From the NCBI GenBank assembly GCA_024654625.1, contig JANLHB010000016.1, positions 128,137 through 192,136 of the forward strand: a stretch of DNA of 64,000 nt, read 5' to 3'. Below are positions 3,001 to 59,035 of this stretch, piece after piece; position 1 is the first letter of the stretch, and every line of letters begins with the position of its first letter. A program made the translations under genes and the position numbers. The stretch is from Patescibacteria group bacterium. Lineage in GTDB: Bacteria; Patescibacteriota; Minisyncoccia; GCA-002772825. The notes below the pieces were generated by a model. The model had not been told where the DNA came from, did no database searches, and saw nothing but the letters and a program-made list of their open reading frames with translations.

Positions 3001-5690
3001 AAAGCCAGCGGAGTATCTTGGAATCCGTATTGGTGGCGGATACTTCCATCCGGCAAGACATCAAAACATTCGGAGAAGTAGTAACGCTGGCTGACAACTT
3101 TTTGAGAACTTGGACAATCCAGAGGGTATTTGAGGAAATCGTTGCCATTGCCGATGTCTTATCCCGTCAAACTCAAAAAGCGTTCAGCGAAGTGGTGATA
3201 ATTGCGGATGCAATCATTGGAAAAACAATATCCAAAGTTTTGTCAGAAATAGTCACGATAGCGGACGCAATCGAGAAACAGATAAGTAGGATTTTTAATG
3301 AAGTTGTGGCAGTGGCCGACAGTATTGTTCGTTCTACCTTAAAACTTTTGAGCGAGGCGGTGATTATCGCCGATATTTTCTTGGCGGTGGCTGTCGTTAA
3401 AAAAGAACTTGTCGAGGCAATTTTGCTGGTAGATTCGGCTATAAAAAGTGTCACGAAATCGATGACAACGGAAATCGTGCTGGTTACAGACAGCGCGGCG
3501 AGATTAGTGGAAAAAAATCTGCAGGACGCGGTTATTGTTGCCGACTCTGTCTTAAAAGAAAGCAGGCGGATCATTCTCGAATCAGTGTTGCTTGTAGACA
3601 CATCCTTCAGACAAGGGATCAAAACGCTCGAGGAAGCGGTGACACTTGTCGACAGTTTTTTGAAAACTTGGACGGCGCAAAGAATCTTTGAGGAAATTGT
3701 CGCCATCAGCGATTCCGTATTCCGGCAAGCGCAAAAGACACTCATTGACGCAGTAATAGTTGCCGACTCGTTAGTGAAATCGATTCAGAGATCGTTGGCA
3801 GAAGCTGTAGCCATCGCAGATTCACTTTTGAGGCAGGCCCAGAAATTAGCGCAAGAAGCTGTGTTTATTGTTGACACCCTCGCAAATCAACTGACTGCAA
3901 GCAGAATTTTTGCAGAAGTTGTCGCAGTGGCCGATACGATTTTTAAGCAAATGAGCAGAAGTTTGGCAGAAGTTGTGGCCATAGTCGACTTTCTTCTGCG
4001 GGCCCCGCAAAAGGTTCTTGCCGATGCGGTGGCCATCGCCGACTCTATCCTAAAATCCGCCCAAAGAGCTTTTTTTGAAGCCGTGGCCGTGGCTGACACA
4101 CTGGCAAAACAAATGATTCGAAGGTTCTCTGAATCAGTGGTTATTGCGGATACTGCCCAAGCTATAAAAACTTTTGTCAGAGATTTGGATGAAATTATTG
4201 CTGTTGTTGATTCAGTAGCGAAACAAACCGGCAGAAGTTTGGCAGAAGTCATATTGATCGTTGATTCGGCGATACGCTCGGCAGGAAAATTCATAACCGA
4301 AACAATTATTGTGGCTGATTCAATTATTCGAGAGACGAGCCGAACGATAAACGAGGTTGTGGTTGTCTCGGATAATCTTGTAAGACAAACTGGAAGAATT
4401 TTGAGCGATGCGGTTGCCTTAGCCGACTCAGTCACTACCAAGATAACCGCCAAGATTTTTGCTGAAGCGGTAGCGATTACTGATGCCATAGAAAAACAGA
4501 CGGGGCGAATTTTGAGCGAGATCGTGGCAATCGCAGACAATCTGATCCGGCAAGCCGGCAAGGTTTTGAGCGATCCCATAGTCGTAATCGATACTTTCAC
4601 CCGCACGATCTCCATTCAGAGAATATTGCAGGAAGCAGTGATTATCGCTGACAGCGTAAACAATCAGGCCCAAAAGATATTCGGGGAAATTATATCGGTC
4701 ATTGATAGTTTAAGCCGGCAGATTTCTCGTCTATTTGCCGAAGCGATATCGATAGCCGATTCGGTTTCAAAGACAGCTCAAAGAATACTTCAAGAAACCA
4801 TCTCAATTGCCGACGCACTCACAAGAGCTGGCGGCAAAGCTCTAAACGAAATCGTCACCATCGCGGATTCTTTATCAAAACAAATCACCCGAACATTAAA
4901 CGAAGTTGTCGCCATCGCTGATTCTGTCTTGAAGCAAGGATCAAGGATTTTTACGGAAGCCATATTGCTTGCTGACAACTTTATTCGGCAGGCCGGCAAA
5001 GTATTTTCCGAAGCAGTACAAATAGCCGATGGCGTGATCGCCGTCAAACTGCAGGTGCTTCTTTCCGAAATAATTGTCATCGCTGACAGCGTTATCATGC
5101 CTTTTACGAAAATGCTTGCCGAGATGATAAGCATTGCGGACGCGATTGTCCGTCAAACAGCCAAGATTTTTGGCGAGGCGGTTTCAATCGCTGATTCGCT
5201 CGGCAAACAGATTTTGAAAATATATGCGGAGATGGTTGCTGTCGCGGATTCAGCGATGCGCCAACCAATGAAGCTTCTCAAAGAAATAGTGACGATAGCA
5301 GATTCGATGGCTCGAATCGTGTCCAGAGTGTTTGCACAAACCATAACGATTGCCGATTCGGCTTTGAAAAAAGCAGTTCGAGTTTTTGCGGAAGCAGTGA
5401 GTATCGCTGAATCACTCGCAAAGCTTCTTACACGATACGCGAATCTTAACGAAATCGTGCAGGTGGCAGATTCGATCATTCGGGCAATTGGCAAGGCGGT
5501 CACCGAGACCGTCCGTATCGTGGCAGAGCTTTTGAATAAACCAACCTTCCCGCCTGTGCTCAAGGTTGCGATTCAATTTCTGACCGCAAAGATCGGTGTT
5601 TTGCTTTCGAGTTCAAAACAGAATACCGAACTAAAGAGCGCGAAAACAGGGGTCGATCTTAAGGGCGCGAAACAAGATATCAATTTGTAA
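60..5690 (+). CDS. Giant repeat protein, 5'-truncated at the window edge. N-terminal Kelch/galactose-oxidase-like beta-propeller repeats, then about 57 tandem copies of a 19-aa unit (x-F-x-E-V-V-x-I-A-D-S-x-x-R/K-Q-x-x-K). Putative phage fibre or adhesin.
   Basis: The reading frame is open from nt 3 with no in-frame stop upstream of the first in-window ATG at 60. Repeated ...FGG...W... Kelch blades run from about aa 1-700. From about nt 2250 to 5500 the sequence repeats with a 57-bp period, seen as recurring EVVAIADS / EIVTIADS / EAVAIADS peptides. Confidence 0.8.
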   Translation: MANRTAREILYDPSSPKIRRSHSIVYDSIHKRYLLFGGWNGTSPRYNDVWELSADDRFGSSPPQWRKLNPSGTPPSARTTHLAFFDATGNRMIIHGGYDGADKNDTYALDVTTRYSEAWTTLSPTGTAPAARSQAAGAFKASTRKAYVQGGLVGAGDYRNDLFELDLSTTNGAWTQLKAEDAAGNPPSRADHSIVFDITNNRLLIFGGYDGTNRLNDLWRWDIAGASFAEVSDGTPPGVRQMHVAVYDENNPRMIVWGGRNGTASSNYLSEIWELNTTSGSETWTDRSQAAGDKVPGSRSSAACFDTVNKIMVIFGGEDSALAQHKHVYFIDLATSGSAPFWGALHNNWLWGRDAIGYAYNPDRNETLIFGGFGRLVEDTLAEGEHTNEFWIYDHANGEWYQPIFNTMFGISEREGATIIYDTNRDRYIIFGGLGGNNTLNNIYFNDVWELKASAVGATGVYTLTKLNPSGTKPAARWLHAAVYDATNDRMIVFGGDDGSNFLNDVKALSFSGGADGAWSAITPTGTAPSARRQTAYAIDTGENVMLISHGGTGVNSFAGDTFKLTLTAGSEAWGSVTGTGAPSARRGMTAIYRSTDDAFYFFGGYNGTTNFDELWKLTFGATPAWSAVADTSPPAGRRSHSGTYSPTGDKMLIYGGRDSTEISFNTLNQTWEYDIAGNVWTKKDPKIYIRGGDDVTGLASSTSYHWQSWVTGVSGGDADKVSAFGNLESVADFLTGTGQAFTQTLNEIVAVADQVPKQAQKAASEVLLIVDSLTRSTSRIFTEVIAIVDSISNQAQKIFSEIVSIADSLIKQGQKNLAEVITITDTVLTQSTLFRTYSEIITITDSLAKQVARSFNEMVILTDSVTAKITAKIFEEVVIIVDSIQRTISRTFNEALTIIDTKILQPIKNFIETVIIADVLSVVLTIKKELSEAVLLVDSAIKDIGKFLAPEIVFVADNAARLSGKNLQDTIIAADSIAKESQRSILESVLVADTSIRQDIKTFGEVVTLADNFLRTWTIQRVFEEIVAIADVLSRQTQKAFSEVVIIADAIIGKTISKVLSEIVTIADAIEKQISRIFNEVVAVADSIVRSTLKLLSEAVIIADIFLAVAVVKKELVEAILLVDSAIKSVTKSMTTEIVLVTDSAARLVEKNLQDAVIVADSVLKESRRIILESVLLVDTSFRQGIKTLEEAVTLVDSFLKTWTAQRIFEEIVAISDSVFRQAQKTLIDAVIVADSLVKSIQRSLAEAVAIADSLLRQAQKLAQEAVFIVDTLANQLTASRIFAEVVAVADTIFKQMSRSLAEVVAIVDFLLRAPQKVLADAVAIADSILKSAQRAFFEAVAVADTLAKQMIRRFSESVVIADTAQAIKTFVRDLDEIIAVVDSVAKQTGRSLAEVILIVDSAIRSAGKFITETIIVADSIIRETSRTINEVVVVSDNLVRQTGRILSDAVALADSVTTKITAKIFAEAVAITDAIEKQTGRILSEIVAIADNLIRQAGKVLSDPIVVIDTFTRTISIQRILQEAVIIADSVNNQAQKIFGEIISVIDSLSRQISRLFAEAISIADSVSKTAQRILQETISIADALTRAGGKALNEIVTIADSLSKQITRTLNEVVAIADSVLKQGSRIFTEAILLADNFIRQAGKVFSEAVQIADGVIAVKLQVLLSEIIVIADSVIMPFTKMLAEMISIADAIVRQTAKIFGEAVSIADSLGKQILKIYAEMVAVADSAMRQPMKLLKEIVTIADSMARIVSRVFAQTITIADSALKKAVRVFAEAVSIAESLAKLLTRYANLNEIVQVADSIIRAIGKAVTETVRIVAELLNKPTFPPVLKVAIQFLTAKIGVLLSSSKQNTELKSAKTGVDLKGAKQDINL

Positions 5691-5693
5691 TTT

Positions 5694-6011
5694 ATGGCCA
5701 GCATTAAAATAGTACAAAACGATACGAAACCATACCTTGAGTTTGAAATAACCCAAGACGGCGCACCTGTCGATCTTACCGGCGCGACGGTGAAATTTTA
5801 TATGAAGGATTCAACCACCGGGTCCGTGAAGATCAATGGAAGCGCATGCACGATTACCGACGCCGCCAAAGGAAAATGCCGCTATGTCTGGGCGGCGGGT
5901 GACACCAACACGGTCGGGACATACCTTGGGGAAGTAGAGGTCACATTTCCCGATACGAAAATCCAGACGGGGTATAAGCAGGTGACGATCATTATTCGAG
6001 ACGACATATAA
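5694..6011 (+). CDS. Phage structural Ig-like protein (BppU N-terminal-like domain)
   Basis: The 105-aa N-terminus IVQNDTKPYLEFEITQDGAPVDLTGATVKFYMK resembles the BppU_N / phage Ig-like fold. It is tightly packed (3-nt gap) in a + strand operon. Confidence 0.5.
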   Translation: MASIKIVQNDTKPYLEFEITQDGAPVDLTGATVKFYMKDSTTGSVKINGSACTITDAAKGKCRYVWAAGDTNTVGTYLGEVEVTFPDTKIQTGYKQVTIIIRDDI

Positions 6012-6015
6012 ATTT

Positions 6016-6648
6016 ATGAACCGAGGAGAAATTAAAACCGCAATAAAAAATCAGGTTGACGATCAGAGTGTCACCGACGCCCTGCTTAATGAGTGGATTC
6101 AAGCCGCAGATGATCGCGTTCAAATTTGGCGTCCGCCGGCCGATCAGAGCCAGAGCTTTGACTACTGGGACTATTTGAAAGACCAAAAAAACTACACGAC
6201 GGTGGCGGATCAGAATAAATATTCTATCCCAGATGAGTACCGAGCGTTTATCGAGCTGACAGTCGGAGACGACACCGAGCCCTACCGGCTGGTTGATTTC
6301 TTGGATCGGGAAGAATTTAACGACCACATCGCTTGGATTCTGGGCAAGTTTTTCTATATGAAGAAAACGCCCTCGGTGGACGGTGACACGATGGTGTTCA
6401 CTTTTGCTCGCATGTCTGACGCGTTTGTCTCGGACAGTGATGAACCAGAAATTGAGCGGCCGTATCATCAGGCCCATGTGGCATTCGGAAAATCCCGCTA
6501 TTACAACCAGCAGGGCGACACGGAATTGGAGAACCAGAATCTAAACGAGTTTGAGAGGATCATGACGAATAAATGGAGGGATCAAGAGCAGGGGCGAATG
6601 GCCTCAGCAAGAGAGTCGGCATCCATCCCCAAAAACTTTTTAGTGTAA
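6016..6648 (+). CDS. Hypothetical phage-module protein
   Basis: Complete 210-aa ORF with a 4-nt gap to the upstream gene, lying in a run of genes on the same strand. No recognisable motif. Confidence 0.55.
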   Translation: MNRGEIKTAIKNQVDDQSVTDALLNEWIQAADDRVQIWRPPADQSQSFDYWDYLKDQKNYTTVADQNKYSIPDEYRAFIELTVGDDTEPYRLVDFLDREEFNDHIAWILGKFFYMKKTPSVDGDTMVFTFARMSDAFVSDSDEPEIERPYHQAHVAFGKSRYYNQQGDTELENQNLNEFERIMTNKWRDQEQGRMASARESASIPKNFLV

Positions 6649-6652
6649 CGAT

Positions 6653-8383
6653 ATGGCATTACTAAAGAAAATTTGGAAACTTTCAAGATTCGACAAGGGA
6701 GTCGGCAATGTGAATGCGCCGGGTATGTTCTGGTGGTCGCAGGGTTTGGATTTTGAATCATCGCCGCCCTATATTCGCGTTGCCGCAAAAATGATCAAGG
6801 AAGCGGATAGCGCGTCCGTCGCTACGCTGGGCGACATTTTCTGGGGAACGATTTTTGACAGCACGAACTGGGCGATCAATATGCTGGACGGCAAGGTTTT
6901 CAAATTCATCTATCCCAGCTGGACGGAAGTTCACGATAATGTGAACGCATGGGGCGGGCTTGGACTTTTCGGCGACAGCCAGATAGAAAATTTCACCGAG
7001 AAAGGATTTTTGTATTTTGCCTCGAACGGCTGGGCGGGACGCTATCAGCGCGAAACCGATACTTGGACTGACTCGTGGCAAAGCTTCGCGGTATCAAACA
7101 ACGCCGAACTTTGCCCGATAACAAAATTTCTCAAGTTCGTCTGTTTTGGCAATGAGCGATACCTCGCCACTTGGGATACCGCCGCAAGCTCGTGGAATGC
7201 GACGCGAATCACTCTTCCGCTAGGATACAGAATCAAATGGCTCATGCCACTCACCGATTACTTGGTGATATCGGCCCACCACAACGCGTTCGGCACAGCA
7301 CTCTTTTTCTGGGACGGAATCTCGGGGACTTATAACCGAGTTCTTCAACTGCCGAATGTGCGCGCGCTTGCCGGCGCGGTGGACAAAAACGCCCTCTATG
7401 TGATCACGGGCGATGGCTGGATCAATCTTTTCAACGGAGTAGGCCTTGTTCGCCTAAATCGCTTCCCAGATATCGAGCTCGACGCAAATTATGCCAGTAT
7501 CCTCAACATCAATCCCGACGCGGTGAAAGTGTTCCAGGGAGTTATTTTGATCGGCAAGGCGGCGAGCGGATTCAGTATGGAGAAGCGATTCTACCCGGGC
7601 GGAATTTGGGTGTTCAATCCCGCAACGCGAGCTCTGTATTTCAAACACACGATGTCGCATTTCGGAATCACCAATAACAGCGGATCAGGAGTTATTGGCA
7701 TCGGAAGCATCATTATTGACCAAGGCGGAAATATCTTCCGAGTCGCGTGGAATAAAGGCGGCGGCACCGGCCAGTATGTCATCGACAACTCAATGGATAG
7801 CGGAAGCGCAAGACCCTACAACTACGGCGCGTTTCTCGTCACTTCGCTTCTCGATGATGAACCATATCGAAGAAAGCGATTCATCCAAACCATAATCAAT
7901 TTTTGGAGACCCTTCGTGGATAGTTCTCTTGCCCGCGTGATCGTGAAATACAACATCACCGAGCAATACCAAAGAGATGTCCGTTTTGCGAGCGGCGGCA
8001 CGAGCACTACATTTACGCTTGGATTTGTGCCGAGCTACTGGGAAGTTGGAGACGAAGTGTCGGTGCTCTCCGGCAACGGCGCGGGACAGATCAGGCACAT
8101 CAAATCCATCAGCGGCACCACGATAACAGTAGATGAATTTCTGCAGGGCGGCGCAAGCTACGATACGACTTCTTTCTTACTGCTTTCAAAATTCAAAAAA
8201 GTCGGCGAGATCAAAGGAAGCACCGAACCAGAGATCGTCAATAAACTGATGCGATTTAATACGAGGTCAAAAAAAATTCAATTAAAAATCGAAATATGGT
8301 CTCCGTCCGGGTTCACCGGCGAGTGGAATATGGGCATTGCCGATATCTCCACCGTCTATGTCCCAGACCGAATCATTAAATAA
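6653..8383 (+). CDS. Hypothetical large structural protein, W/G-rich and probably beta-rich (tail, baseplate or capsid candidate)
   Basis: 576-aa ORF with non-repetitive, protein-like composition, co-operonic with the neighbouring genes. Confidence 0.6.
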   Translation: MALLKKIWKLSRFDKGVGNVNAPGMFWWSQGLDFESSPPYIRVAAKMIKEADSASVATLGDIFWGTIFDSTNWAINMLDGKVFKFIYPSWTEVHDNVNAWGGLGLFGDSQIENFTEKGFLYFASNGWAGRYQRETDTWTDSWQSFAVSNNAELCPITKFLKFVCFGNERYLATWDTAASSWNATRITLPLGYRIKWLMPLTDYLVISAHHNAFGTALFFWDGISGTYNRVLQLPNVRALAGAVDKNALYVITGDGWINLFNGVGLVRLNRFPDIELDANYASILNINPDAVKVFQGVILIGKAASGFSMEKRFYPGGIWVFNPATRALYFKHTMSHFGITNNSGSGVIGIGSIIIDQGGNIFRVAWNKGGGTGQYVIDNSMDSGSARPYNYGAFLVTSLLDDEPYRRKRFIQTIINFWRPFVDSSLARVIVKYNITEQYQRDVRFASGGTSTTFTLGFVPSYWEVGDEVSVLSGNGAGQIRHIKSISGTTITVDEFLQGGASYDTTSFLLLSKFKKVGEIKGSTEPEIVNKLMRFNTRSKKIQLKIEIWSPSGFTGEWNMGIADISTVYVPDRIIK

Positions 8384-8388
8384 CCACC

Positions 8389-8577
8389 ATGGCTTACACA
8401 TTGGAAAAAATTGACGCGGAAAATTTTAAGCTTATCGAAAGCAAGTCGGCAACTTCGGTATTCAATATCAATGAGTTGAAGAAATTAAAAACGCAATTAG
8501 AAAAAGAGGTCACGAGAATTAATAGCGAGCTCGCCAGAGTCAATACAATCTTGGACGAGTACGCAAAACTACCATAA
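8389..8577 (+). CDS. Small coiled-coil protein
   Basis: 62 aa, charged and helical (KLKTQLEKEVTRINSELARVNTILDEY), packed between the neighbouring genes. Confidence 0.4.
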   Translation: MAYTLEKIDAENFKLIESKSATSVFNINELKKLKTQLEKEVTRINSELARVNTILDEYAKLP

Positions 8578-8579
8578 CC

Positions 8580-8786
8580 ATGCCAAACGATCCAAACGAA
8601 AACAGAAATCCGCTTGATCCGCAATTGGGACTCATTCTCACTCTGTTGAGAGATATCCCGATTTTGAATACGGTCCCGAGCGACCCGCCAAAGTTTCCGA
8701 TCGGATTCGCGCTCTATGACGACGGTGTAAATCGGAGGTTTTACATTTTCTTCAATGGCAACTGGCGATATGTAGCTCTCACTTAA
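8580..8786 (+). CDS. Small hypothetical protein
   Basis: 68-aa ORF with 2-4 nt gaps to its neighbours on the same strand. Confidence 0.4.
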   Translation: MPNDPNENRNPLDPQLGLILTLLRDIPILNTVPSDPPKFPIGFALYDDGVNRRFYIFFNGNWRYVALT

Positions 8787-8790
8787 ACAT

Positions 8791-10161
8791 ATGGCAAACA
8801 CACTATTCGAATATTACAAAACAAAAGGCCAAAAACTCCCCGGCATTTCCGATAGATCGAAAACTTTCGAGGAACTTGGCTTGGGAGCGGCTTCGGCATA
8901 TAAGGGCGACTACCAGCAGAATGTTGACCTGTTGGAGAGGTTGAAAGCCGGGTCCCAGCCCAAAATAACCCCAATTCAGCCTCAAACCGCCTCTCTGCCA
9001 GCCCAGAAACCCCCCGTGGCGAGCCTTGCGACCCGTGTTGAAGCGGGGCCGACCCAGCCACCCATTTCACCACCTGTGCCGAGCTTGCCACCCAAAACGA
9101 CCATTTCTGGACAAGAGGTGCCAACCAGCACTGGACTATTCCAGCAGTATCAGGTGGACATAAACAAACGCATGCAGGATTTAGAAGAGCGAGAAAGAAA
9201 AGTTTTGGAATCACAAAAAGCTTTGCCGAGCAAAGCCGATCTTCTGAGCGGCGCGAGAACCGAGCAGGGTCTGCCAGAAGATACCAAAAGAGCCCAAAGC
9301 TTGGATGAACGGCTGGCCTCATTAGAGGGTTCAATCTTTGAATCCGAGAGGGATATTCGGGATCGCATCAAAAAGAGCGGCGGCATTGTGACGGAAAGTC
9401 AGGTGCAAAGATTAGCGGCTTCTGAAACCAGACCATTGCTTGAAGAATACAACCGGCTCTCTACGGAGAGACAACGGCTTGGCCAAGGCATCTCTTCAAA
9501 AGAAGGTCTTGCCCGCGAATTTGCCGGCGCGAAGTTTGAGGACTTGTCCCGCGCGCTTGGGATAGCGGAAACCGAACTTGAATTTGGCAGGAAGCGATAC
9601 GAAATTTATGCGGATATTGCCGGCGATCTCTTGAACGCATCTCAAAAAGACATCGCGCAGATTGTCGAAATGGCTCAATCCAAAGACAAGGCCGAAAGAA
9701 AAGCGGCCGAAGATGCCATTGATTTCGCATTCAAGATGGCGGACTTAGCAGTGAAAACTCCGGCTGGCACGACATTCGATATCGGTGGGAAAAAAGTGGC
9801 CGGCGTAAAACCGCCGACATCATCTTCCGTCAGTACGCTTGCGCCGACGCAGTTCAACATTCGCGCAGGCCTTGCAGGACTTACTAAAGATCAGGCAAAC
9901 GATGTCGCCGCTTCGGAAACTCCGCCGGCGTGGTTTAAGGCCCAAGAAGAAAACAAAGCGCAATCATCGCTGACATTCGCGGAACTTCAGAAAAGATGGA
10001 GCGCCATGAGAAGCAAGGTAGCGCAAGCGGCAGAGACAAAAGAATCTGATGATCCGTTCGCCAGAATCGTTGAGGCGGCGATTAGCGGCGGAGAAACAGG
10101 AACCGAAGGGGGCGATCTCTTCGAGGCCATCATTAAAAAAGCGTTGGCCGAAAGCCCATAA
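8791..10161 (+). CDS. Coiled-coil protein with a proline-rich linker (scaffold- or assembly-like)
   Basis: 456 aa. A central Pro/Gln-rich segment (PQTASLPAQKPPVASLA...PPISPPVPSLPP) is followed by long E/K/R-rich helices. Confidence 0.55.
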   Translation: MANTLFEYYKTKGQKLPGISDRSKTFEELGLGAASAYKGDYQQNVDLLERLKAGSQPKITPIQPQTASLPAQKPPVASLATRVEAGPTQPPISPPVPSLPPKTTISGQEVPTSTGLFQQYQVDINKRMQDLEERERKVLESQKALPSKADLLSGARTEQGLPEDTKRAQSLDERLASLEGSIFESERDIRDRIKKSGGIVTESQVQRLAASETRPLLEEYNRLSTERQRLGQGISSKEGLAREFAGAKFEDLSRALGIAETELEFGRKRYEIYADIAGDLLNASQKDIAQIVEMAQSKDKAERKAAEDAIDFAFKMADLAVKTPAGTTFDIGGKKVAGVKPPTSSSVSTLAPTQFNIRAGLAGLTKDQANDVAASETPPAWFKAQEENKAQSSLTFAELQKRWSAMRSKVAQAAETKESDDPFARIVEAAISGGETGTEGGDLFEAIIKKALAESP

Positions 10162-10166
10162 CAGCT

Positions 10167-36317: not shown

Positions 36318-37337
36318 ATGCAATTTAAAGAAGCAATCGATCAATTTTCTAACTGGCGCAGGTTTAAGGTCAAAGTTCAGACCGTAAAAGGTTACGATCA
36401 GACACTGAGACAATTCTGCCTCTACCTTCGAAACCCCCAGATCGAGGACATATCAATCCATCATGTCATGGACTATTTGAATGGCATGAAAGAACTGGGA
36501 TGGGACCAAAATAGCTTTGTCGGGAAGTGCATGGCTCTGCGCAAGTTCTTTGAATTTTATCGACTTCAGAACTATGCAGTTCTCGATGAGAACCTGATTC
36601 CGATACCCAGCAAAGAACATAAACTTCCAAGGGTTGCAAAAGAGGCGGATTATAGGCAACTGATTGCCGCCATACCCGTAAAGACCACCGATCCTCGTCA
36701 TATCCGAAACTTAGCCATCGTGAATTTGTTATGGGACACCGGCGCGAGAAACGGAGAGGTGCTTGCATTAGATGTAGATGATCTGGACATGGAGAGACGC
36801 CGAGCGGTTATCAATACTGAGAAATCAAAAGGAAGGCGGCCGTTTCGGGAATTATTCTGGACACAATCAACCAACGACAGTATATGGGCTTGGTTGAAAA
36901 AAAGAGAACACCTAAAAAAGACAATGGCGTTCAAGGAACCAGATGCTCTCTTTCTCTCGATATGCGCCGGCCAGCACGATACGACAGGCAGACGATTCAC
37001 TATCCGAGGAGTCGGTGAAATGTTGAGGCGTTATTCAAACAGAGCTAAGTTGCCCTACTTGAACGCTCATAGTTTTCGACACCATATGGGTCACCACATT
37101 ATAAAGAGCGGCGGATCAAGCGCCGATGTGATGAATATACTTGGCCACTCGTCGGTCCAGAGCTCGACAATTTACACGATGATGACTGATCACGAATTGG
37201 AAAAGAGATATCGAGGATTCATGAACGATACTCCGACAAAAGAAAGAGCAGAGAGGATAGAGAGAGCAGAAAGAGTTGCGAGAGTCGAAAACTCCGTAGA
37301 GAAATTTGCGAGACCCGTCGTCCCGTTGCCAGATTAA
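36318..37337 (+). CDS. Tyrosine recombinase (XerC/XerD-like phage integrase family)
   Basis: SAM-like N-terminal core-binding domain. Catalytic residues: WDTGARNGE (Arg), HSFRHHMGHH (H-x-x-R) and LGHSSVQSSTIYT (Tyr). Confidence 0.85.
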   Translation: MQFKEAIDQFSNWRRFKVKVQTVKGYDQTLRQFCLYLRNPQIEDISIHHVMDYLNGMKELGWDQNSFVGKCMALRKFFEFYRLQNYAVLDENLIPIPSKEHKLPRVAKEADYRQLIAAIPVKTTDPRHIRNLAIVNLLWDTGARNGEVLALDVDDLDMERRRAVINTEKSKGRRPFRELFWTQSTNDSIWAWLKKREHLKKTMAFKEPDALFLSICAGQHDTTGRRFTIRGVGEMLRRYSNRAKLPYLNAHSFRHHMGHHIIKSGGSSADVMNILGHSSVQSSTIYTMMTDHELEKRYRGFMNDTPTKERAERIERAERVARVENSVEKFARPVVPLPD

Positions 37338-37686: not shown

Positions 37687-38343
37687 ATGAAAGGTGATAT
37701 TTTTCATATTATAAACAGGGGAGTGGAAAAAAGAAAAATCTTTTTAACAGATGAAGATTATTTACGTTTCATTCATAATTTAAAGGATTTTAATTGTAGT
37801 GATCTAGTTACAGCTTCATATCATGATAGGCGAAAATATGAACAGTCGTTGCTTGAGAGACGGTTAAATACAAAATTAGACAATGAATTAGTGGATATAT
37901 TGTGTTGGTGCCTTATGCCAAATCATTACCATATACTTGTTCAGGAAAAAATAGATAAGGGGGTCAGTATGTTTTCTAAAAAAATAAGCAGCGGATATAC
38001 TCAATCTTTTAATTTAAAATATAAGAGATCGGGAGTTTTGTTTCAAGGTCGGTCAAAAATTATTCAAATAGAAAATGATGAGCATCTTCTATTTATCCCT
38101 TATTACATTTTTTCTAATCCCATTAAACTAATAAAAAAGAATTGGAAAGATTATGGTTTGGATAACGCGGAAAAAGCAGTTGAATTCTTAGAAAGCTATA
38201 AGTGGTCAAATTATTCAATTGTGACAAATAATAAGGACTATCCTTTCGTAGGTGACAGAGATCTGTTTTTTGAAATCTTTGATACTAATAAGGAGCAGTT
38301 TAGAAAAGATTTTATAACCTGGCTATGCGATAGCCAGAAATAA
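37687..38343 (+). CDS. IS200/IS605-family Y1 (HuH) transposase / REP-associated tyrosine transposase (RAYT)
   Basis: CWCLMPNHYHILVQ contains the HuH motif (HYH) typical of the IS200-like TnpA fold. The gene is flanked by REP-like palindromes. Confidence 0.75.
   Translation: MKGDIFHIINRGVEKRKIFLTDEDYLRFIHNLKDFNCSDLVTASYHDRRKYEQSLLERRLNTKLDNELVDILCWCLMPNHYHILVQEKIDKGVSMFSKKISSGYTQSFNLKYKRSGVLFQGRSKIIQIENDEHLLFIPYYIFSNPIKLIKKNWKDYGLDNAEKAVEFLESYKWSNYSIVTNNKDYPFVGDRDLFFEIFDTNKEQFRKDFITWLCDSQK
38321..38337. repeat. REP-like palindrome GGCTATGCGATAGCCAG (right end, inside the 3' end of the RAYT gene)
   Basis: Exact copy of the 37655-37671 element. Confidence 0.6.
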
Positions 38344-38556: not shown

Positions 38557-38601
38557 GGCTATCGCATAGCCGTAAGCATAGCCGTAAGTATAGCCGTAAG
38601 T
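38557..38601. repeat. Inverted copy of the REP-like palindrome (GGCTATCGCATAGCC) running into a 3x tandem 12-mer (G/T)CATAGCCGTAA
   Basis: The reverse complement of the flanking palindrome is followed by gcatagccgtaa gcatagccgtaa gtatagccgtaa. Confidence 0.55.
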
Positions 38602-51281: not shown

Positions 51282-51878
51282 ATGACCAAATCTAACAGAA
51301 AGGGATTTACATTATTAGAGCTTCTTGTCGTTATTGCGATAATTGGTCTTTTGGCTTCTGTTATAGGGGCAACCTTAAGCAGAGCAAGGGCTAGCGCGAG
51401 AGACACTAAAAGAGTCCAAGATTTGAATACCATTGCAAGCGCTTTGGAGAATTTTGCTATTGACAATAATAGATACCCCTTACCGTCAGAGATAGATGCG
51501 GATATTTATAATTTTGATCGTTCAAGTTACGACGATGACTTTTTGGATATTTTGGTTTCTGAAGGTTACTTGACCTCTGTTCCACGAGACCCATTGAATA
51601 CCGGCTGGTCTCCTTGGGAGGCCGGTCAATATTTATATGCCTACGGAGCTTCCCCAAGTGGCAGATATTATATGTTAATATCTCAATTGGAAAATCCAGA
51701 TCACCCCGAATCGGCTCAATATAAATGTGGCAGGTGGACCGGCGGTTGGCCAATGAGTGAAGAAGATTTTGTTTTTGGAATTCGTGTCACTCCCTCATGT
51801 TGCCCTTCTCCATACACTTATTGCACCGGCCACGCTGGTATGGATAGCGCTTATGTTGTAAATAGTGTTTATCCTTAA
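51282..51878 (+). CDS. Type IV pilin / pseudopilin with an N-terminal prepilin methylation motif
   Basis: KGFTLLELLVVIAIIGLLASVI is the class III signal peptide (G/FTLxE). Confidence 0.8.
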   Translation: MTKSNRKGFTLLELLVVIAIIGLLASVIGATLSRARASARDTKRVQDLNTIASALENFAIDNNRYPLPSEIDADIYNFDRSSYDDDFLDILVSEGYLTSVPRDPLNTGWSPWEAGQYLYAYGASPSGRYYMLISQLENPDHPESAQYKCGRWTGGWPMSEEDFVFGIRVTPSCCPSPYTYCTGHAGMDSAYVVNSVYP

Positions 51879-51930
51879 TCCCCCCTCCTTTTTTTTGCGC
51901 AGACAGCCCCCTGTGGATAACATCCTTATA

Positions 51931-51956
51931 CCCCCCCCCACTAAAAAAGGTATAAT
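51931..51956 (+). promoter_or_regulatory. Poly-C(9) tract abutting a candidate promoter (TATAAT at 51951-51956) upstream of the giant surface-protein gene. Upstream C6 and T8 tracts lie at 51880-51896.
   Basis: Homopolymer CCCCCCCCC at 51931-51939 lies in the -35/spacer position relative to TATAAT. Confidence 0.4.
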
Positions 51957-52036
51957 AGTATGATATTAATCCCGTTTGAAATTTATTAACCATAAATACT
52001 TACGGGCAAAGATTATTAATCTAAATTTCAATTGGG

Positions 52037-55000
52037 ATGATATTAAAATTATTCAAAGGGAGAGAAGGGGTAAAAACAAACAGAAACCTTACCAGTAAAC
52101 TTATCCTTTTAGCTATCTCTCTCTTCCTCCTCTTCTCCTCTTTCACTCAAACTACAGAAGCAGCCACAGAATCAATAAAGACGATAAGAGAAGATGGAAC
52201 AGGGGACTACACTTCACTCTCCGCATGGGAAGCCGGAGAACAGAGGGACCTCACCGCTACCGATGAAATAGCCGTCGCCCGTATCGAAGGGACCTGGACT
52301 AACCCTGATACTACCGCTGTCACTATAGACGGTTGGACTACAGACGCGACTAGATATATTAGGATATATACTGCGCCGGAGGCGAGGCACACAGGAAAGT
52401 GGGATACGGGGAGGTATATGCTACAAGCCGGAGGAAACACTTTAAATATCCAAGAACAATACACCAGAATCGATGGGCTTCAGGTTTATCAAACCAATTC
52501 AGGAAACTGGAACAACGGTGCTATAAACGTGAATGTAGCTAAACCCTATGTTCAAATTTCTAACAACATAGTTAAATCGGCATTAGCTAACAATGTCAGT
52601 CTCAACGGCGGTGGCGCATTGATATTGATTCAGTATTTTAACAATACGAGTAATATAAATAAAATTTGGAACAACATTCTTTATGATAAGCCGGGAACTT
52701 ACGGAATAGGGATAAATGCCTATGGTTATAATGAGATAACTTATATTTATAATAATACGATAACAGGTTCGGCGGTGGGGATATATGTTTATACGGGGAT
52801 TTATGAAGTGGTGGTTGCAAAAAATAATCTTGTTTACAACAACACAGACAATTATAACGGCACTTTTAATGTCGCTTCGACTAACAACCTATCTGGCCAT
52901 TCTCAGGCAGACGCTCCCGGATCAAATTCAAAAAACTCTACTACCGTCTTTTTTGTAGATTCAACAAGTAAAGACTTCCATCTTGTTTCAGGCGATACAG
53001 GGGCGAAAGATTCAGGAACAGACTTATCAGGAGATGCAAATCTAGCTTTCTCCACAGACATAGATGGAGAGACCCGTTCAGGGACTTGGGATATCGGCGC
53101 GGATGAAACTTCAGGTGGTACTCCACCACCTTCCTACCAATGCTCCGACGGCCTAGACAACGACGGAAACGGCCTCACCGACTATCCTTCTGACTCGGGC
53201 TGTACTTCTACCACCGACAACGACGAATACAATGCGCCCACCGACATCACTCCACCCACTCGGTCTACCGGCTCACCCACAGGCACCCTAACATCCGGCA
53301 CCACCTCCACCACACTATCAATCACCACCGACGAGAACGCCACCTGTAAGTACGGCGTAAACTCAAACACCGCCTACGCTTCCATACCAAACACTTTCTC
53401 CATCACCGGAGGCACTAGCCACACCACCACCTTAACCGGTCTCACAGGTGGCACATCCTACACCTACTACATAAGGTGCCAAGACACGGCCGGCAACCCT
53501 AACACCTCAGACTATCCGATCACCTTCTCTGTCGCGTCAGCTCCTACAACAGGCACCCCTTCGGTAAGTGGAGTGTCGGGAGCATTCACTAATGATTCTG
53601 CAATCACAATCACGGGCAGTAGCTTTGGGTCCAATGGACCAAACATCGTAGTCTTTGACGATTTTGAGGGTGGTACAAACGGGTCTGTTGTTTCCACAGG
53701 AGCAAATTCTGCTACCGTAGGAAAATGGGACAGAGTGGGCGGTGGCGACAATAATAACCCGCCTGTTTATGATAATATTTTTTCTGTTTCCGGGAGCAGG
53801 GCTATGAAGTCTGATTATACTGTTAAGACCAATACAGGCACAGATTCAAACTCAGCCGCTTTTGTAGATGGAATTGATACGGGAGATGTATTTTTATCCT
53901 ACTGGTATTACTTGCCAACGACTTCGAGCTTCCCTTGTTATAACAGGGGGATCTGTAACTGGAAAGTAGCGTGGCTATATGGCGCGGATACTCGCTATGA
54001 TGACCAGGTTTTACCTGTCGGTTTGCCGGGCGGGACAACTCCACCTTATTCAAGCTGGGCTGTTTCTTGTAATGACTGTTTTGGTGGTACTGCAAACTGG
54101 TATACCCTGAATATGGCTAAAGGGAAATGGTATCGGGTGTCGGCATGGGTTCATGCAACCCCTGATTCTTCCAGTGAAAAGACGTTATGGGTGGTCAGCA
54201 CAGATGATGCAATACCTGTTACCCAAAAGGTCAATTGGACAGGTCAGATATTCAAGGATATTGGCGATGTATTTAAAACTTTTTCTTTTAGCTCATGGGC
54301 GAGATGGTGCAATGACTGCGCTGAAAGCGCGCCAAGATTTGATGATGTATATATGGCAACCGGATCGAATGCAAGAGCAAGAGTGGAAATAGGTAATGCT
54401 TCCACGTATTCCGCCAGCACCAATCTTTCGATAGCTACTGTAACTTCCTGGAGCGACAGCTCCATTGCCGCGACGGTAAGGCAAGGCTCCTTCACCCCCG
54501 GCCAAACCGCCTACCTTTATGTCATAGACGCCAACGGCAATGTCAGCGCCGGCAAACAGATAACGATAGGAGGGACAAGTGTCCCACTGACTGACATCAC
54601 AGCGCCGACTACCACCACTTCATTATTAGGTGGCACCTACAACGGAGCTCAGACAGTAACCCTCTCCACTAACGAGACAGCAACCACTTACTACACCATC
54701 GACGGTTCAACCCCAACCATTTCATTAACAGTCTATTCATCAGCCATCTCCATACCGCAGACCACAACATTAAAATACTTTTCCGTAGATACGGCGGGAA
54801 ACACCGAAGGCGTCAAAACCCAGACCTACACTATCAATACCTCCACCAAATTCAGCTTAAACAACAGAGTCCAAACAACCTCCACCTTAAATGTCAGACA
54901 AACCCCTTCCGCTACTGGCACCCTCTTGGGTACGGAAGCTCAAGGAAACTTAGGCACTGTAACAGGTGGCCCAACTTACGCCGATAGCTTCTGGTGGTGG

Positions 55001-58000
55001 CAAGTTCAATATGATTCAGGTCTAACCGGCTGGTCTGTTGAAGATTACTTAACTTTGTATTCTGCTCCTACATCAGGCACCCCTTCGGTAAGTGGAGTGT
55101 CGGGAGCATTCACTAATGATTCTGCAATCACAATCACGGGCAGTAGCTTTGGCGCCAATGGACCCAACATCGTAGTCTTTGACGATTTTGAGAGGGGGAC
55201 GAACGGAAGTGTTGTCGCAACCGGCGCAAACTCTGCTACCATAGGAAAATGGGACAGAGTGGGGGGTGGAGATAACAGCAACCCGCCAAAGTATGATAAT
55301 ACCTATTCCGTTTCGGGGAATATGGCGTTTAAGGGGGATGCCACGAAGCAAACCAACCCCGGCAGTTCAGATTCTACCAGCGCCGCCTTTATTGATAATT
55401 TAAACTCTTCGGATGTTTATCTTTCATATTGGGTCTATTGGCCGACCACTTCTAGTTTCCCCTGCAAAGATGGGGGGATTTGTAATATTAAATACGCATG
55501 GTTTTATGACACCACTACATTAAATGATAGGACTATGTTTTCATCTATGCCTAGCAGTAACAGCACCGTCAGCTCCATTTATTTTTTTGGTAACGGAAGC
55601 GCTACCGGCGAACATTATTTCTCACCTTCTGTATCCATGCAAAAAGGGAAATGGTACAGATTGTCCGGCTGGATACACGGCGCTTCCGATTCTTCAGGCC
55701 GGGAGAATGCTTGGATTATGAGCCCTTCTGATCAAGCGAATATCGCTGTGTCTCAAAGAGTAGGTTATTCAGGACCAGTACTTAATCCAGGAGGATTATT
55801 CAAACACTTCTCTTTTAATGCATACGAAAGGTGGTGCAACGACTGTGCTGAAAGCGCCCCAAGGTTTGACGACGTCTATTTGGCAACCGGACCAAACGCC
55901 CGCGCAAGAGTAGAAATAGGCAACGCCTCCACCTACAATGCCAGCACCAATCTTGCCATAGCTACTGTAACTTCCTGGAGCGACAGCTCTATCACGGCGA
56001 CAGTAAGACAAGGCTCTTTCACCCCCGGCCAAACCGCCTACCTCTATGTCATAGACGCCAACGGCAATGTCAGCGCCGGCAAACAGATAACGATAGGAGG
56101 GACAAGTGCCCCACCTACCTTGGGTGACCCTGTGGTGAGTGGAGTCTCGAGCACGTTCAATCATGGTTCCAGTGTCACGCTAACGGGTAGCAATTTCGGA
56201 TTAAAAGCTTCAGCCACCCCAATGGTATGGGAAAACTTTGAGTGGGGCGTGAACGGGGATGAGATAACCGGAAAAAATGGATGGATTGAATCGAACGCCG
56301 CGACTCAACCGAATACTTCTATAAATACCGCGCAGGCTTACGGTGCCGGTTCCCGTTCTTCCTATTACATGGTAGACCCCCCGGAAGGCAGTCAAGCGTC
56401 GGAGACTCAGGAATTCGGGTTTATAAAGAAAACATTTCCTGAAAGCGATCAAGTTTATGTCAGTTATTTGACGAGAATTGATCAAACTGTCGCTTCGGGT
56501 TCAAGAATGTGGAAGATTGGCAGAATTGGAAATTGGAGTACCGTACCTTCTTACAATCAGCCTCCATATATGGGAGTTACTTGGTTTCCTACAGAATGGA
56601 ACTCTCATTATGATGTAGGGAATGGGCAGACGGGGGTATACGATGGTGGCGGTTATGCGACTAACACATGGCATCGAGTGGAAATGTGGATTAAGTTGTC
56701 AAGCCCTGCTGATACCGCAAACGGAGAACTGGAGTACTGGTTAAATTATGCGCAGAAAAATCCTAAGAATGTTACCGTAACAAGAACAGCGACCATTGCA
56801 AATGAGAAAATAGATACATTTACTTCTCCTCATATGTATGTTAATGCCGTTGGGGGGAAATATGAAATATGGATGGATGATGTATATATTGATAATACAA
56901 AATCCAGAACAGAGCTTTGCAATAGTTCTACATGGGCTACTCGCATTCAGTGCGAAATCCAAATACCATCCGCATGGTCTCCCAACTCTATCACTCTCAC
57001 CGCAAATCAAGGTGCGTTCACTCCCGGCCAGACAGTCTATCTCTATGTCATAGACGCCTCCGGCAAAGTGAACGCAAGCGGTTATCCTGTAACGATAGGG
57101 GGGATAAGTACTCCCACCTACCAATGTTCCGACGGCACCGACAACGACAGTGATGGTTTTACTGACTACCCTTCAGACCCCGGTTGTACTTCCACCACCG
57201 ACAACAACGAATACAATCCACCAGCCGACACCACCGCCCCAGTCCTCACCGCCATCACCGCAACCTCAATCGGCCCAAACTCCGCCACCATCTCCTGGGC
57301 CACCAACGAACCGTCAGACACTCAGGTAGAGTATGGTCTCTCCACTTCTTATGGTACTGCCACCAACTTAAACTCCAACCTGACCACCACCCACAGTCAG
57401 ACCTTAAACAACCTTTCACCTTCTACCCTCTACCACTACCGAGTAAGGTCAGTTGACGCTTCAGGCAACAACTCTATCTCCACCGACCAGACCTTCACTA
57501 CTTCAGGAGTTCCGGACACCACCCCACCTTCTGCCATCACCAACCTCTCCACCTCCTTCATCAACCACACCTCCATTACTCTAAACTGGACCGCACCGGG
57601 AGATGATGGCACCCAAGGTGCCACCCGCTCTTACGATATAAGGTATTCAACTTCACCGATAGACGACACAAATTTCTCTTCTACCACTCAAGTCACCGGA
57701 GAACCAACCCCTAAAGTCTCCGGCACCTCGGAATCTTATCCTATCGCCGGCCTCTCTTCAGCCACCACCTACTACTTTGCCCTGAAAACCACCGACGATG
57801 CCGGTAATGTCTCACCCCTCTCCAACATCGCTAGTGACACCACTCACTCTCTCACCCTCTCCGTCAATCTCTCCGCCAACAAAACATCAGGCAACCCACC
57901 ATTATCCATCAACCTCACTGCCTCATCCGCCGGCGACACCTTAGGTCAGACCACCTACACCTTCTATTGCAACAGGGAAGACACCGGCACCAACATCACC

Positions 58001-59035
58001 ACCGACTACAACACTCAAGGCCCATTAGAAACCCACACCTGTACTTACCCCACCGTCGGAAGTTACACCGCTAAAGTGATCGCCCAGAGAGGTACCATCT
58101 CCTCAGAAAACAGAGTCAGTATCAATGTCACATCTCCAACTACCACCGGAAACACCACCACCGTCACTTCAGGTGGGGGAGGAGGAGGCGGATCCTACGG
58201 CGGCGGCGGTAACTACTACGACACCACTCCACCAGCTGTCCCTCAAGCCTTCACCGCCCAATCCGCCGAGAACCAAGCCACCCTTACTTGGACCAACCCA
58301 CCCGACTCCGACTTTGTCCGTGTGGCGGTCGTCCGTTCTCTTACTCCTATCTCTAACCTCTCCACTTTCACTCAAGCCCAGACTCAAGGAGAAGTAATCT
58401 ATGAAGGAACAGACAACGAATACACCGACATTAATCTTTCCAACAATACCCCTTACTATTACGCCATCTACTCTTACGACAAGAAACCTAACTACTCCAA
58501 TCCGATTATCGTCACTGCCACTCCGAAACTCGGTCAGACCTCTATCTCCACCCAAACAACACCAACCTCTCTTCCTATCTTCACCCCAACCATCACCACT
58601 CTCCCACCGCTAGAGGGTCCGTTCTCCATCGGTATGGAAAACAATCAAGTCAAACTCCTCCAACAATACTTAGCTCAGGACAAAGAGATCTATCCCGAAG
58701 GGATCACTTCCGGCTACTACGGCGCCTTAACTCAAAGAGCCGTCGAAAGATTCCAAAAGAAATACAATATCATCTCTTCCGGTTCCCCTTACACCACAGG
58801 CTACGGTCTTGCCGGTCCCGGCACCCGTGCCAAGATCATGGCCGTCTTAGGTGCCACCCTTTCCACCTATGGTGGGGGAGTAAGCACCCTACCTGGGCAG
58901 ACAATCCCAACCTCCGAAGATGCCCTGAAAGCCCTCTTGATGAAACAGATTGAAGAACTTCAGGCGATCTTGCAAGATCTTTTAGCTCAACTGGTAGAGG
59001 CTTTGATGTTGCAACTTCAGGGGATGGCGAGGTAG
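52037..59035 (+). CDS. Giant secreted surface protein: N-terminal beta-helix-like region, two MopE-like Cys/Asp metal-binding motifs, three tandem ~350-aa modules ending in IPT/TIG-like domains, FN3 and PKD-like domains, a Gly-rich linker and a C-terminal peptidoglycan-binding domain
   Basis: Signal-anchor LILLAISLFLLFSSF. YQCSDGLDNDGNGLTDYPSDSGCTSTTDN is repeated at aa ~365 and ~1,695. FN3-like TAPVLTAITATSIGPNSATISWATNEPSDTQVEYG...YHYRVRSVDASGN. C-terminal PG_binding_1-like VKLLQQYLAQDKEIYPEGITSGYYGALTQRAVERFQKKYN. Confidence 0.85.
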   Translation: MILKLFKGREGVKTNRNLTSKLILLAISLFLLFSSFTQTTEAATESIKTIREDGTGDYTSLSAWEAGEQRDLTATDEIAVARIEGTWTNPDTTAVTIDGWTTDATRYIRIYTAPEARHTGKWDTGRYMLQAGGNTLNIQEQYTRIDGLQVYQTNSGNWNNGAINVNVAKPYVQISNNIVKSALANNVSLNGGGALILIQYFNNTSNINKIWNNILYDKPGTYGIGINAYGYNEITYIYNNTITGSAVGIYVYTGIYEVVVAKNNLVYNNTDNYNGTFNVASTNNLSGHSQADAPGSNSKNSTTVFFVDSTSKDFHLVSGDTGAKDSGTDLSGDANLAFSTDIDGETRSGTWDIGADETSGGTPPPSYQCSDGLDNDGNGLTDYPSDSGCTSTTDNDEYNAPTDITPPTRSTGSPTGTLTSGTTSTTLSITTDENATCKYGVNSNTAYASIPNTFSITGGTSHTTTLTGLTGGTSYTYYIRCQDTAGNPNTSDYPITFSVASAPTTGTPSVSGVSGAFTNDSAITITGSSFGSNGPNIVVFDDFEGGTNGSVVSTGANSATVGKWDRVGGGDNNNPPVYDNIFSVSGSRAMKSDYTVKTNTGTDSNSAAFVDGIDTGDVFLSYWYYLPTTSSFPCYNRGICNWKVAWLYGADTRYDDQVLPVGLPGGTTPPYSSWAVSCNDCFGGTANWYTLNMAKGKWYRVSAWVHATPDSSSEKTLWVVSTDDAIPVTQKVNWTGQIFKDIGDVFKTFSFSSWARWCNDCAESAPRFDDVYMATGSNARARVEIGNASTYSASTNLSIATVTSWSDSSIAATVRQGSFTPGQTAYLYVIDANGNVSAGKQITIGGTSVPLTDITAPTTTTSLLGGTYNGAQTVTLSTNETATTYYTIDGSTPTISLTVYSSAISIPQTTTLKYFSVDTAGNTEGVKTQTYTINTSTKFSLNNRVQTTSTLNVRQTPSATGTLLGTEAQGNLGTVTGGPTYADSFWWWQVQYDSGLTGWSVEDYLTLYSAPTSGTPSVSGVSGAFTNDSAITITGSSFGANGPNIVVFDDFERGTNGSVVATGANSATIGKWDRVGGGDNSNPPKYDNTYSVSGNMAFKGDATKQTNPGSSDSTSAAFIDNLNSSDVYLSYWVYWPTTSSFPCKDGGICNIKYAWFYDTTTLNDRTMFSSMPSSNSTVSSIYFFGNGSATGEHYFSPSVSMQKGKWYRLSGWIHGASDSSGRENAWIMSPSDQANIAVSQRVGYSGPVLNPGGLFKHFSFNAYERWCNDCAESAPRFDDVYLATGPNARARVEIGNASTYNASTNLAIATVTSWSDSSITATVRQGSFTPGQTAYLYVIDANGNVSAGKQITIGGTSAPPTLGDPVVSGVSSTFNHGSSVTLTGSNFGLKASATPMVWENFEWGVNGDEITGKNGWIESNAATQPNTSINTAQAYGAGSRSSYYMVDPPEGSQASETQEFGFIKKTFPESDQVYVSYLTRIDQTVASGSRMWKIGRIGNWSTVPSYNQPPYMGVTWFPTEWNSHYDVGNGQTGVYDGGGYATNTWHRVEMWIKLSSPADTANGELEYWLNYAQKNPKNVTVTRTATIANEKIDTFTSPHMYVNAVGGKYEIWMDDVYIDNTKSRTELCNSSTWATRIQCEIQIPSAWSPNSITLTANQGAFTPGQTVYLYVIDASGKVNASGYPVTIGGISTPTYQCSDGTDNDSDGFTDYPSDPGCTSTTDNNEYNPPADTTAPVLTAITATSIGPNSATISWATNEPSDTQVEYGLSTSYGTATNLNSNLTTTHSQTLNNLSPSTLYHYRVRSVDASGNNSISTDQTFTTSGVPDTTPPSAITNLSTSFINHTSITLNWTAPGDDGTQGATRSYDIRYSTSPIDDTNFSSTTQVTGEPTPKVSGTSESYPIAGLSSATTYYFALKTTDDAGNVSPLSNIASDTTHSLTLSVNLSANKTSGNPPLSINLTASSAGDTLGQTTYTFYCNREDTGTNITTDYNTQGPLETHTCTYPTVGSYTAKVIAQRGTISSENRVSINVTSPTTTGNTTTVTSGGGGGGGSYGGGGNYYDTTPPAVPQAFTAQSAENQATLTWTNPPDSDFVRVAVVRSLTPISNLSTFTQAQTQGEVIYEGTDNEYTDINLSNNTPYYYAIYSYDKKPNYSNPIIVTATPKLGQTSISTQTTPTSLPIFTPTITTLPPLEGPFSIGMENNQVKLLQQYLAQDKEIYPEGITSGYYGALTQRAVERFQKKYNIISSGSPYTTGYGLAGPGTRAKIMAVLGATLSTYGGGVSTLPGQTIPTSEDALKALLMKQIEELQAILQDLLAQLVEALMLQLQGMAR

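Follow-up and report, generated by a model that had tools for sequence, protein, structure and literature searches.

A C-tract of variable length in a conserved promoter-like cassette upstream of genes for giant secreted proteins in a small lineage of Parcubacteria

The giant gene and the sequence upstream of it

The window, by which we mean the whole 64,000-nt stretch of DNA analysed here, contains a giant gene that follows the gene for a prepilin-type pseudopilin (Table 1). The translated giant protein carries a Sec-type signal peptide, lacks a lipobox cysteine, and has an N-terminal repeat region and two internal repeats of ~480 aa each. The original prediction had called it a surface protein, and this label is reasonable in view of the signal peptide and of the Pfam domains CHB_HEX_C, SH3_3, fn3 (two copies) and, at the C-terminus, PG_binding_1. 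Judged from its translation, the product resembles the surface-exposed or host-interaction proteins that are the targets of contingency loci. An NCBI MAG of the 'Parcubacteria group' encodes a protein with 100% identity to the pilin. Genes in this region are ordered transketolase, PfkB, class-II aldolase, 2-Hacid_dh (2-hydroxyacid dehydrogenase), pilin and giant gene, an order that is kept in a sister species. No terminator was found between the pilin gene and the promoter-like cassette that precedes the giant gene, so read-through from the pilin gene could mask changes at the promoter. Gene starts in the window mostly lack a Shine-Dalgarno sequence and are A/T-rich upstream (for example AAATTT-ATG), with GGAGG present at a few (38681, 59220).

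Table 1. Coordinates in the window of the features at the giant gene locus and of the box motif
Feature	Position	Strand	Remarks
Prepilin-type pseudopilin gene, 198 aa	51282-51878	+	N-terminal methylation motif; Pfam N_methyl 3.9e-9, T2SSG
C6	51880-51885	+	directly past the pilin stop codon TAA (51876-78)
T8	51889-51896	+	not in the conserved cassette
C5	51907-51911	+	abuts the upstream box; missing from the runs listed in the original prediction
Upstream box TGTGGATAAC	51912-51921	+	
Linker ATCCTTATA	51922-51930	+	TCTCCCTTAT in the sister species; conserved in alignment A1
C9 homopolymer	51931-51939	+	cassette element of variable length
ACTAAAAAAGG, then TATAAT (-10 hexamer)	51940-51956 (TATAAT 51951-51956)	+	
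ATGATATTAA	51960-51969	+	ancestral start relic, first copy of a 10-nt direct repeat; the giant gene of relatives starts at the same sequence
67-nt insertion	51970-52036	+	imperfect inverted ends CCCGTTTGAAATTTA / CCCAATTGAAATTTA, matching at 13/15
Giant secreted/cell-surface protein gene	52037-59035	+	2,332 aa; intact ORF
Motif (A/T)GTGGATAA(C/G)	16083-92, 19064-73, 22816-25, 35965-74	-	
Motif (A/T)GTGGATAA(C/G)	42724-33, 51912-21	+	

The original prediction proposed that a C9 tract at the -35/spacer position relative to TATAAT, with C6 and T8 runs further upstream, forms a phase-variation switch. All of its coordinates for the tracts, TATAAT and the ORF were confirmed. The C9 begins 9 nt after a conserved box and ends 11 nt before the conserved TATAAT. 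Assuming a transcription start ~7 nt past the -10 hexamer, it would occupy about -32 to -24 and would cover the 3' half of the -35 position and the upstream spacer. The proposed placement stands insofar as the tract lies inside a conserved promoter-like cassette, but no -35 hexamer is recognisable upstream of TATAAT, and what the tract parts from the -10 is the GTGGATAAC box. Because the -35 is missing, a scan with the sigma-70 consensus misses the cassette promoter and makes no promoter call here; the number of promoter-like sites that it finds in the region equals the shuffle expectation. The C9 would thus be a homopolymer of at least ~7 nt within a promoter, the promoter being predicted from its conservation and position.

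By composition alone the C9 is only weakly unusual. In the window, which has a G+C content of 43.6%, just two runs of C or G exceed 6 nt, both of them C9 (38484-92 and 51931-39), and there are no C7 or C8 runs. The expected number of C or G runs of 9 nt or more is 0.29 per window; two were seen, a number reached in 5 of 100 dinucleotide shuffles. The tract at 51931-39 owes its significance to its conservation in relatives and not to the run itself.

The C6 and T8 runs, in contrast, do not appear to be parts of a switch. Both are missing at the orthologous site in the sister species (TAATTTAAATCTGTGG), in a third species (L043) and in every paralogous copy of the cassette, and because of their absence from the sister species and the paralogs we place them outside the device. 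As an intrinsic terminator the pair was considered and rejected: no hairpin lies ahead of T8, so the stem is absent, and the pair is not conserved. The C5 run has counterparts in paralogous copies (CCCC-TT-CTGTGG in L032, CCCCCC-TT-CTGTGG in L035 and CCCCC-T-CTGTGG in L037). Additionally, ATCCTTAATCCCCCCTCC (51871-88, pilin stop and C6) and ATCCTTATACCCCCCCCC (51922-39, linker and C9) form an 18-nt direct repeat with 83% identity, which may reflect a small duplication or chance.

In the window, TATAAT is followed by AGT and ATGATATTAA, then by 67 nt, and then by ATGATATTAA again; the giant ORF starts at this second copy. The 67-nt insertion is absent from all relatives examined. The tract had been described as ~80 nt upstream of the giant gene, and TATAAT indeed ends 80 nt before the ATG, but this distance is derived and specific to the window, since it results from the insertion flanked by the 10-nt direct repeat. 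In relatives, TATAAT lies only 6-8 nt from the conserved ATG (8 nt in L001 and L043, 7 nt in L024, a distant paralog, and 6 nt in L044). The ancestral start of the window now opens a 9-codon ORF (MILIPFEIY*), and the resulting 80-nt leader RNA has a predicted hairpin in which the AUG at 52037 is paired (-20.6 kcal/mol, z -2.4). Of the features of a MITE, the insertion has the inverted ends (13/15) and the 10-nt direct repeat but not the dispersed copies, since neither the 64-kb window nor ~139 kb of loci fetched from relatives contained a second copy. A search of 51700-52200 against Rfam returned nothing meaningful (one MIR408 match, E = 0.2, far below the gathering score). After the insertion, the cassette in the window may work differently or not at all.

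A cassette common to related species and its upstream box

Comparison with relatives supports the view that a genuine, conserved promoter-like cassette stands immediately 5' of the giant gene and includes the C9. In three Parcubacteria species a CTGTGGAyAAC box is followed by a TCCyTTAT linker, a C-tract, AC(T)AAAAAAGG and TATAAT, and the cassette can be aligned across all three even though the flanking pilins share only 62-75% identity. Box, linker, ACAAAAAAGG and TATAAT are nearly invariant across these species, and AAAAGGTATAAT is invariant both among them and in every paralogous copy. The box has one variable position (T/C) and is otherwise the same in all cassette copies. The sister species, which has the nearest relative of the pilin (75% identity), is represented by seven contigs (JGI, ENA, Logan) with the gene order of the window. 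Its 60-nt intergenic region reads TAATTTAAAT-CTGTGGACAAC-TCTCCCTTAT-Cn-ACAAAAAAGG-TATAAT-AACCCCAT-ATGATATTAAAA. The third species (L043, pilin 62%) has CCCC-TGTGGATAAC-CCCCTTATA-CTCCCC-ACAATAAAAGG-TATAAT-AATCTAAT-ATG. The short TATAAT-to-ATG distance in relatives suggests a leaderless mRNA; promoter activity of the cassette and its transcription start are likewise predicted from the sequence.

A metagenome scan with the N-terminus of the giant protein and a genome scan with the DNA pattern located the cassette in further upstream contexts (L032, L035, L037 and L040). L035 and L037 are two contigs of one MAG, CG10_big_fil_rev_8_21_14_0_10_38_31, and carry C8 and C10, respectively. In the sister species, cassettes precede different proteins that have the signal-peptide start MILKLLKK in common, and cassette and signal-peptide start occur together in at least three or four upstream contexts. 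Since the same cassette stands before different genes, it is conserved and, in the sister species, multi-copy. When the N-terminus from the sister species was used in a further protein search, no additional MILKLLKK-type fragments emerged, and a scan of viral contigs for the cassette yielded no match. One contig is a mosaic (L040, 1-520), matching the pilin-linked L001 exactly over the first 160 nt and the L037 paralog exactly in later segments; either paralogs have recombined or the contig is an assembly chimera. REP-like hairpins (CCCAACGGCTAA...TTAGCCGTTGGG) occur shortly upstream of the paralogous cassettes (L032 1100-1185, L035 3300-3382, and the minus strand of L037), and the runs beside them vary too (G6 or G7; C4, C5 or C6).

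More distantly, a box together with T7, T9 or a CT-rich stretch is found ahead of homologous genes of other Patescibacteria (L044, L013/17/22 and L009). Judging from these loci, the pyrimidine tract may just be a structural feature of this promoter type, which counts against a slippage-based role. The distant homologues L041, L042 and L045 have neither box nor tract. In L013, L017 and L022 the C-tract has its counterpart, ~60 nt before the ATG, in a T9 run that is identical in the three contigs, and L044 (150-195) has T7 instead. These T-runs follow a box (GGGGATAAC or TGTGGATAA) and precede TATACT or TATAAT. The box is also present at the unrelated Patescibacteria loci L034 and L038, which were picked by pattern. 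On L038, a G8 run (1531-1538) lies 5 nt before an ATG (AAAATAGGGGGGGGTGAAATG).

Read on the opposite strand, the box corresponds to the DnaA-box consensus TTATCCACA. In the window, TGTGGATAA (51912-20, reverse complement) matches it at 9/9 positions, compared with 8/9 in L001, and the box with its flanks (CTGTGGATAAC) equals the context of R1/R4 in E. coli oriC. The window has six copies of GTGGATAA where 1.53 would be expected, and none of 100 shuffles reached six. Non-coding DNA makes up 9.5% of the window and contains all six copies, an outcome with a chance of ~7e-7 under uniform placement (0.095 to the sixth power). Every one of them is oriented toward an ORF and a -10-like hexamer (18-33 nt off, judged by eye), and four of the six read AGTGGATAAC. 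This distribution suggests that the box is a general promoter-upstream element in this genome. We also considered a replication origin and rejected it, as there is one box per intergenic region and the six copies are dispersed over 36 kb with no cluster. A local turn in GC skew at 52 kb, which together with the DnaA box had raised the possibility of an origin, matches the composition of the giant gene itself, and neither dnaA nor dnaN was found among the window proteins scanned, a minority of the window ORFs. Compared with the DnaA box as a transcription-factor site, the likeness here is by sequence, with single boxes at many promoters and no oriC cluster. As the motif stands at many promoters here and before homologous genes elsewhere in Patescibacteria, it may aid promoter annotation in genomes of the candidate phyla radiation (CPR). 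Two Rfam matches at gathering level, a LOOT RNA (19109-19231, minus strand, 82.6 bits) and a SAM-I riboswitch (18649-18762, minus strand, 61 bits), have one GTGGATAAC box and a small ORF between them.

Variation of the C-tract and likeness to known systems

We compared ten complete copies of the cassette, L001 and L008 being the same contig. The window has A followed by C9, with 29 nt from box to TATAAT. Four copies (L001/L008, L002, L006 and L032) have T followed by C8 (28 nt), whereas L035 has C8 with the preceding T missing (27 nt). The tract reads T followed by C3AC5 in L004 and L005 (29 nt), T followed by C10 in L037 (30 nt) and CTC4 in L043 (26 nt). Every gap in the alignment of the ten copies (A1) falls in or beside the C-run, and it is these tract differences that give the box-to-TATAAT spacing of 26-30 nt. 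For two further tracts, which lie at contig ends, only lower bounds are available (at least C9 in L003 and at least C8 in L007).

The original prediction called for a comparison of tract length among relatives, and variation was borne out in the sister species, where contigs that are otherwise identical over 1.2-4.6 kb differ solely in the tract. L002 and L004, which come from different samples, align over 3,236 nt with 0 mismatches and 1 gap, as do L001 and L005 over 1,193 nt. L001 and L003 are 100% identical for 4,618 nt, after which L003 has a ninth C. As an internal control, the A6 run two bases past the tract is constant among the sister-species copies. The interrupted C3AC5 allele was recovered in two separate JGI assemblies and is thus not a one-off error. 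Taken together, these alignments point to tract-length polymorphism with invariant flanks both in the sister species and between paralogs. Three contigs (L003, L007 and L040) break inside the C-run. The breaks are suggestive in that they fit read-level heterogeneity, but they also fit the cassette being a repeat, a break being expected at any multi-copy repeat.

Homopolymers in or next to the -35/-10 spacer set the expression of outer-surface proteins in Neisseria meningitidis (opc poly-C, porA poly-G and fetA poly-C). The cassette is similar in having a G/C homopolymer at the -35/-10 region of a surface-protein gene, but the Neisseria promoters have a recognisable -35 and -10 spaced by the tract, whereas no -35 is recognisable here. 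In the vlp genes of Mycoplasma hyorhinis, a poly-A tract lies between -35 and -10, and a conserved promoter and signal-peptide 5' end precede lipoproteins. Similar to vlp, the cassette belongs to a surface multigene family of reduced-genome, host-dependent bacteria, with a near-identical promoter and signal-peptide cassette and a promoter homopolymer of variable length. In contrast, the vlp tract is poly-A and its products are lipoproteins, while the giant protein has no lipobox cysteine.

The closest likeness is to the fim promoters of Bordetella pertussis and B. bronchiseptica (fim2, fim3, fimX and fimN), in which a C-stretch lies between a fim box and a -10 and varies in length among strains and paralogs (PMC1891110). 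Interrupted alleles, C6TC3 and C9TC8, are known from B. parapertussis, and in fimX one extra C (C7 versus C8) changes the transcript level about fourfold (PMC1891110). As in Bordetella, paralogous genes for surface structures have a common promoter in which poly-C covers the -35 region between a box and the -10, tract length varies by strain or paralog, and an interrupted allele exists (C3AC5 here). From the sequence, the cassette appears to be of fim-type architecture, with box, C-stretch and -10 common to paralogs and no consensus -35. The differences are also clear. There is no sequence homology between the two systems, and tracts are 7-22 nt in Bordetella but 8-10 nt here. The fim box is a BvgA site, whereas the cassette box is DnaA-box-like and unrelated to BvgA sites, so the cassette would be a functional analogue of the fim promoters and not a member of their family. 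Additionally, the Bordetella target is a fimbrial subunit and the target here a 2,332-aa multidomain protein, for which the layout in relatives implies a leaderless mRNA.

Interpretation of the tract and other observations in the window

With moderate confidence we regard the C9 as a spacer prone to slippage within a conserved cassette that has a regulatory role for giant secreted-protein genes. The cassette, in the order box CTGTGGATAAC, short linker, C-stretch over the -35 region, A-rich segment and TATAAT, would drive these genes in a small lineage of Parcubacteria. Replication slippage would add or remove one C, and each such change would shift the distance between box and -10 (26-30 nt observed), and with it the helical phase, by one base pair. 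With the box bound by an activator or serving as an UP-like contact, the changed spacing would raise or lower transcription of the surface protein in a heritable yet reversible manner. Such a locus would be a contingency locus with the design of the Bordetella fim promoters. Slippage is the presumed mutational mechanism and tract length is predicted to affect expression; the role may be, for example, to vary surface proteins that contact the host or are exposed to phage.

By analogy, slippage-based tuning of transcription is plausible, and we favour a graded 'volume control' over a sharp ON/OFF switch. Spacing appears to be tolerant, ranging over 26-30 nt in intact-looking copies and 18-33 nt at other box promoters, which argues against a sharp switch. 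L043 has a non-slippery CTC4 tract together with its 26-nt spacing. Tracts of C8-C10 are also short for high-frequency switching, which likewise counts against a switch.

The main rival to a regulatory role is neutral drift, in which the promoter is constitutive, makes no -35 contact, and has an indel-prone spacer whose C-run is tolerated and drifts in length, homopolymers being quick to mutate, with no meaningful change in expression. We consider this unlikely but by no means negligible. The tolerance of 26-30 nt across functional-looking copies, the bare CTC4 of L043, the absence of a -35 hexamer and the unfixed distance between box and -10 at other window promoters are all consistent with drift. 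It fits less well with a C-run held at 8-10 nt in two species and several paralogous copies, with the existence of an interrupted, 'locked' allele, or with the likeness to fimX, where C7 versus C8 alters transcription about fourfold (PMC1891110). For the window itself, a relic is also conceivable if rather doubtful: the 67-nt insertion would have uncoupled or silenced the ancestral leaderless arrangement, and the giant gene would be read via pilin read-through or a new promoter. All relatives have TATAAT-N6-8-ATG where the window has TATAAT-AGT-ATG and the 9-codon relic ORF, with the actual AUG base-paired within a hairpin. Yet the 2,332-aa ORF is intact and the cassette unchanged in the window, a leader lacking a Shine-Dalgarno sequence is normal in a genome where most genes lack one, and the hairpin could itself be regulatory.

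That the length differences are homopolymer sequencing or assembly errors at a tract that is stable in vivo is improbable. Illumina quality drops past long homopolymers, three contigs end in the run, and the L040 mosaic is possibly an assembly chimera. Against this, C8 was recovered in four independent assemblies and C3AC5 in two, and C10 comes from a curated MAG at NCBI. Homopolymer miscalls do not typically insert an A, and the neighbouring A6 and the remaining 1-4.6 kb are error-free between the same contigs. We find it most improbable that the sequence acts at the RNA level, with 51879-51941 serving, once transcribed, as a Rho-utilisation site or another signal for termination or processing of the pilin transcript. 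This stretch is C-rich and G-poor (29 C and 7 G in 63 nt), and the pilin gene has no intrinsic terminator downstream. However, conservation in the sister species does not extend to the C-rich part 5' of the box, and in other contexts it is the downstream genes, not the pilin gene, that the conserved part accompanies.

The regulatory reading of the C9 can be extended to the whole gene family, a step that we regard as unlikely though worth stating. A portable cassette, comprising a DnaA-box-type site, a slippery C-stretch, a -10, a leaderless start and a shared signal peptide, would run the giant-gene family. Its paralogs would be stochastically switched or tuned by slippage and shuffled by recombination, possibly with coupling to DnaA or the cell cycle.

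Patescibacteria (CPR) spend their lives on the cells of their hosts, to which they are attached, and the giant proteins on their surface are leading candidates for mediating host contact. If the proposed tuning is true, ultrasmall bacteria share a bet-hedging strategy with mucosal pathogens and mycoplasmas, and tract length would be a sequence-readable marker to follow in metagenomic time series. A full-text search of one paper library returned nothing linking phase variation or TTATCCACA with Patescibacteria or Parcubacteria. What is plausibly new here is a candidate homopolymer-tuned promoter of a surface-protein gene family in a phylum for which the literature searched holds no such reports.

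Homology between the two C9 loci of the window was considered and rejected, since the only sequence they have in common is C9AC (11 nt). The other C9 (38484-92) sits in the region of an IS200-like element, between copies of the palindrome GGCTATGCGATAGCC (37655, 38321 and 38557). These palindromes flank a Y1_Tnp (IS200-like) gene at 37687-38343, which a tyrosine integrase gene adjoins at 36318-37337, and ATAGCCGTAAG is repeated three times in tandem at about 38563-38600. Lastly, further giant ORFs lie at 60-5690 (1,876 aa) and 10167-15893 (1,908 aa), with a large ORF at 16319-17452. The region 60-17452 is a block of higher GC (46-52%) and may be mobile or phage-like.
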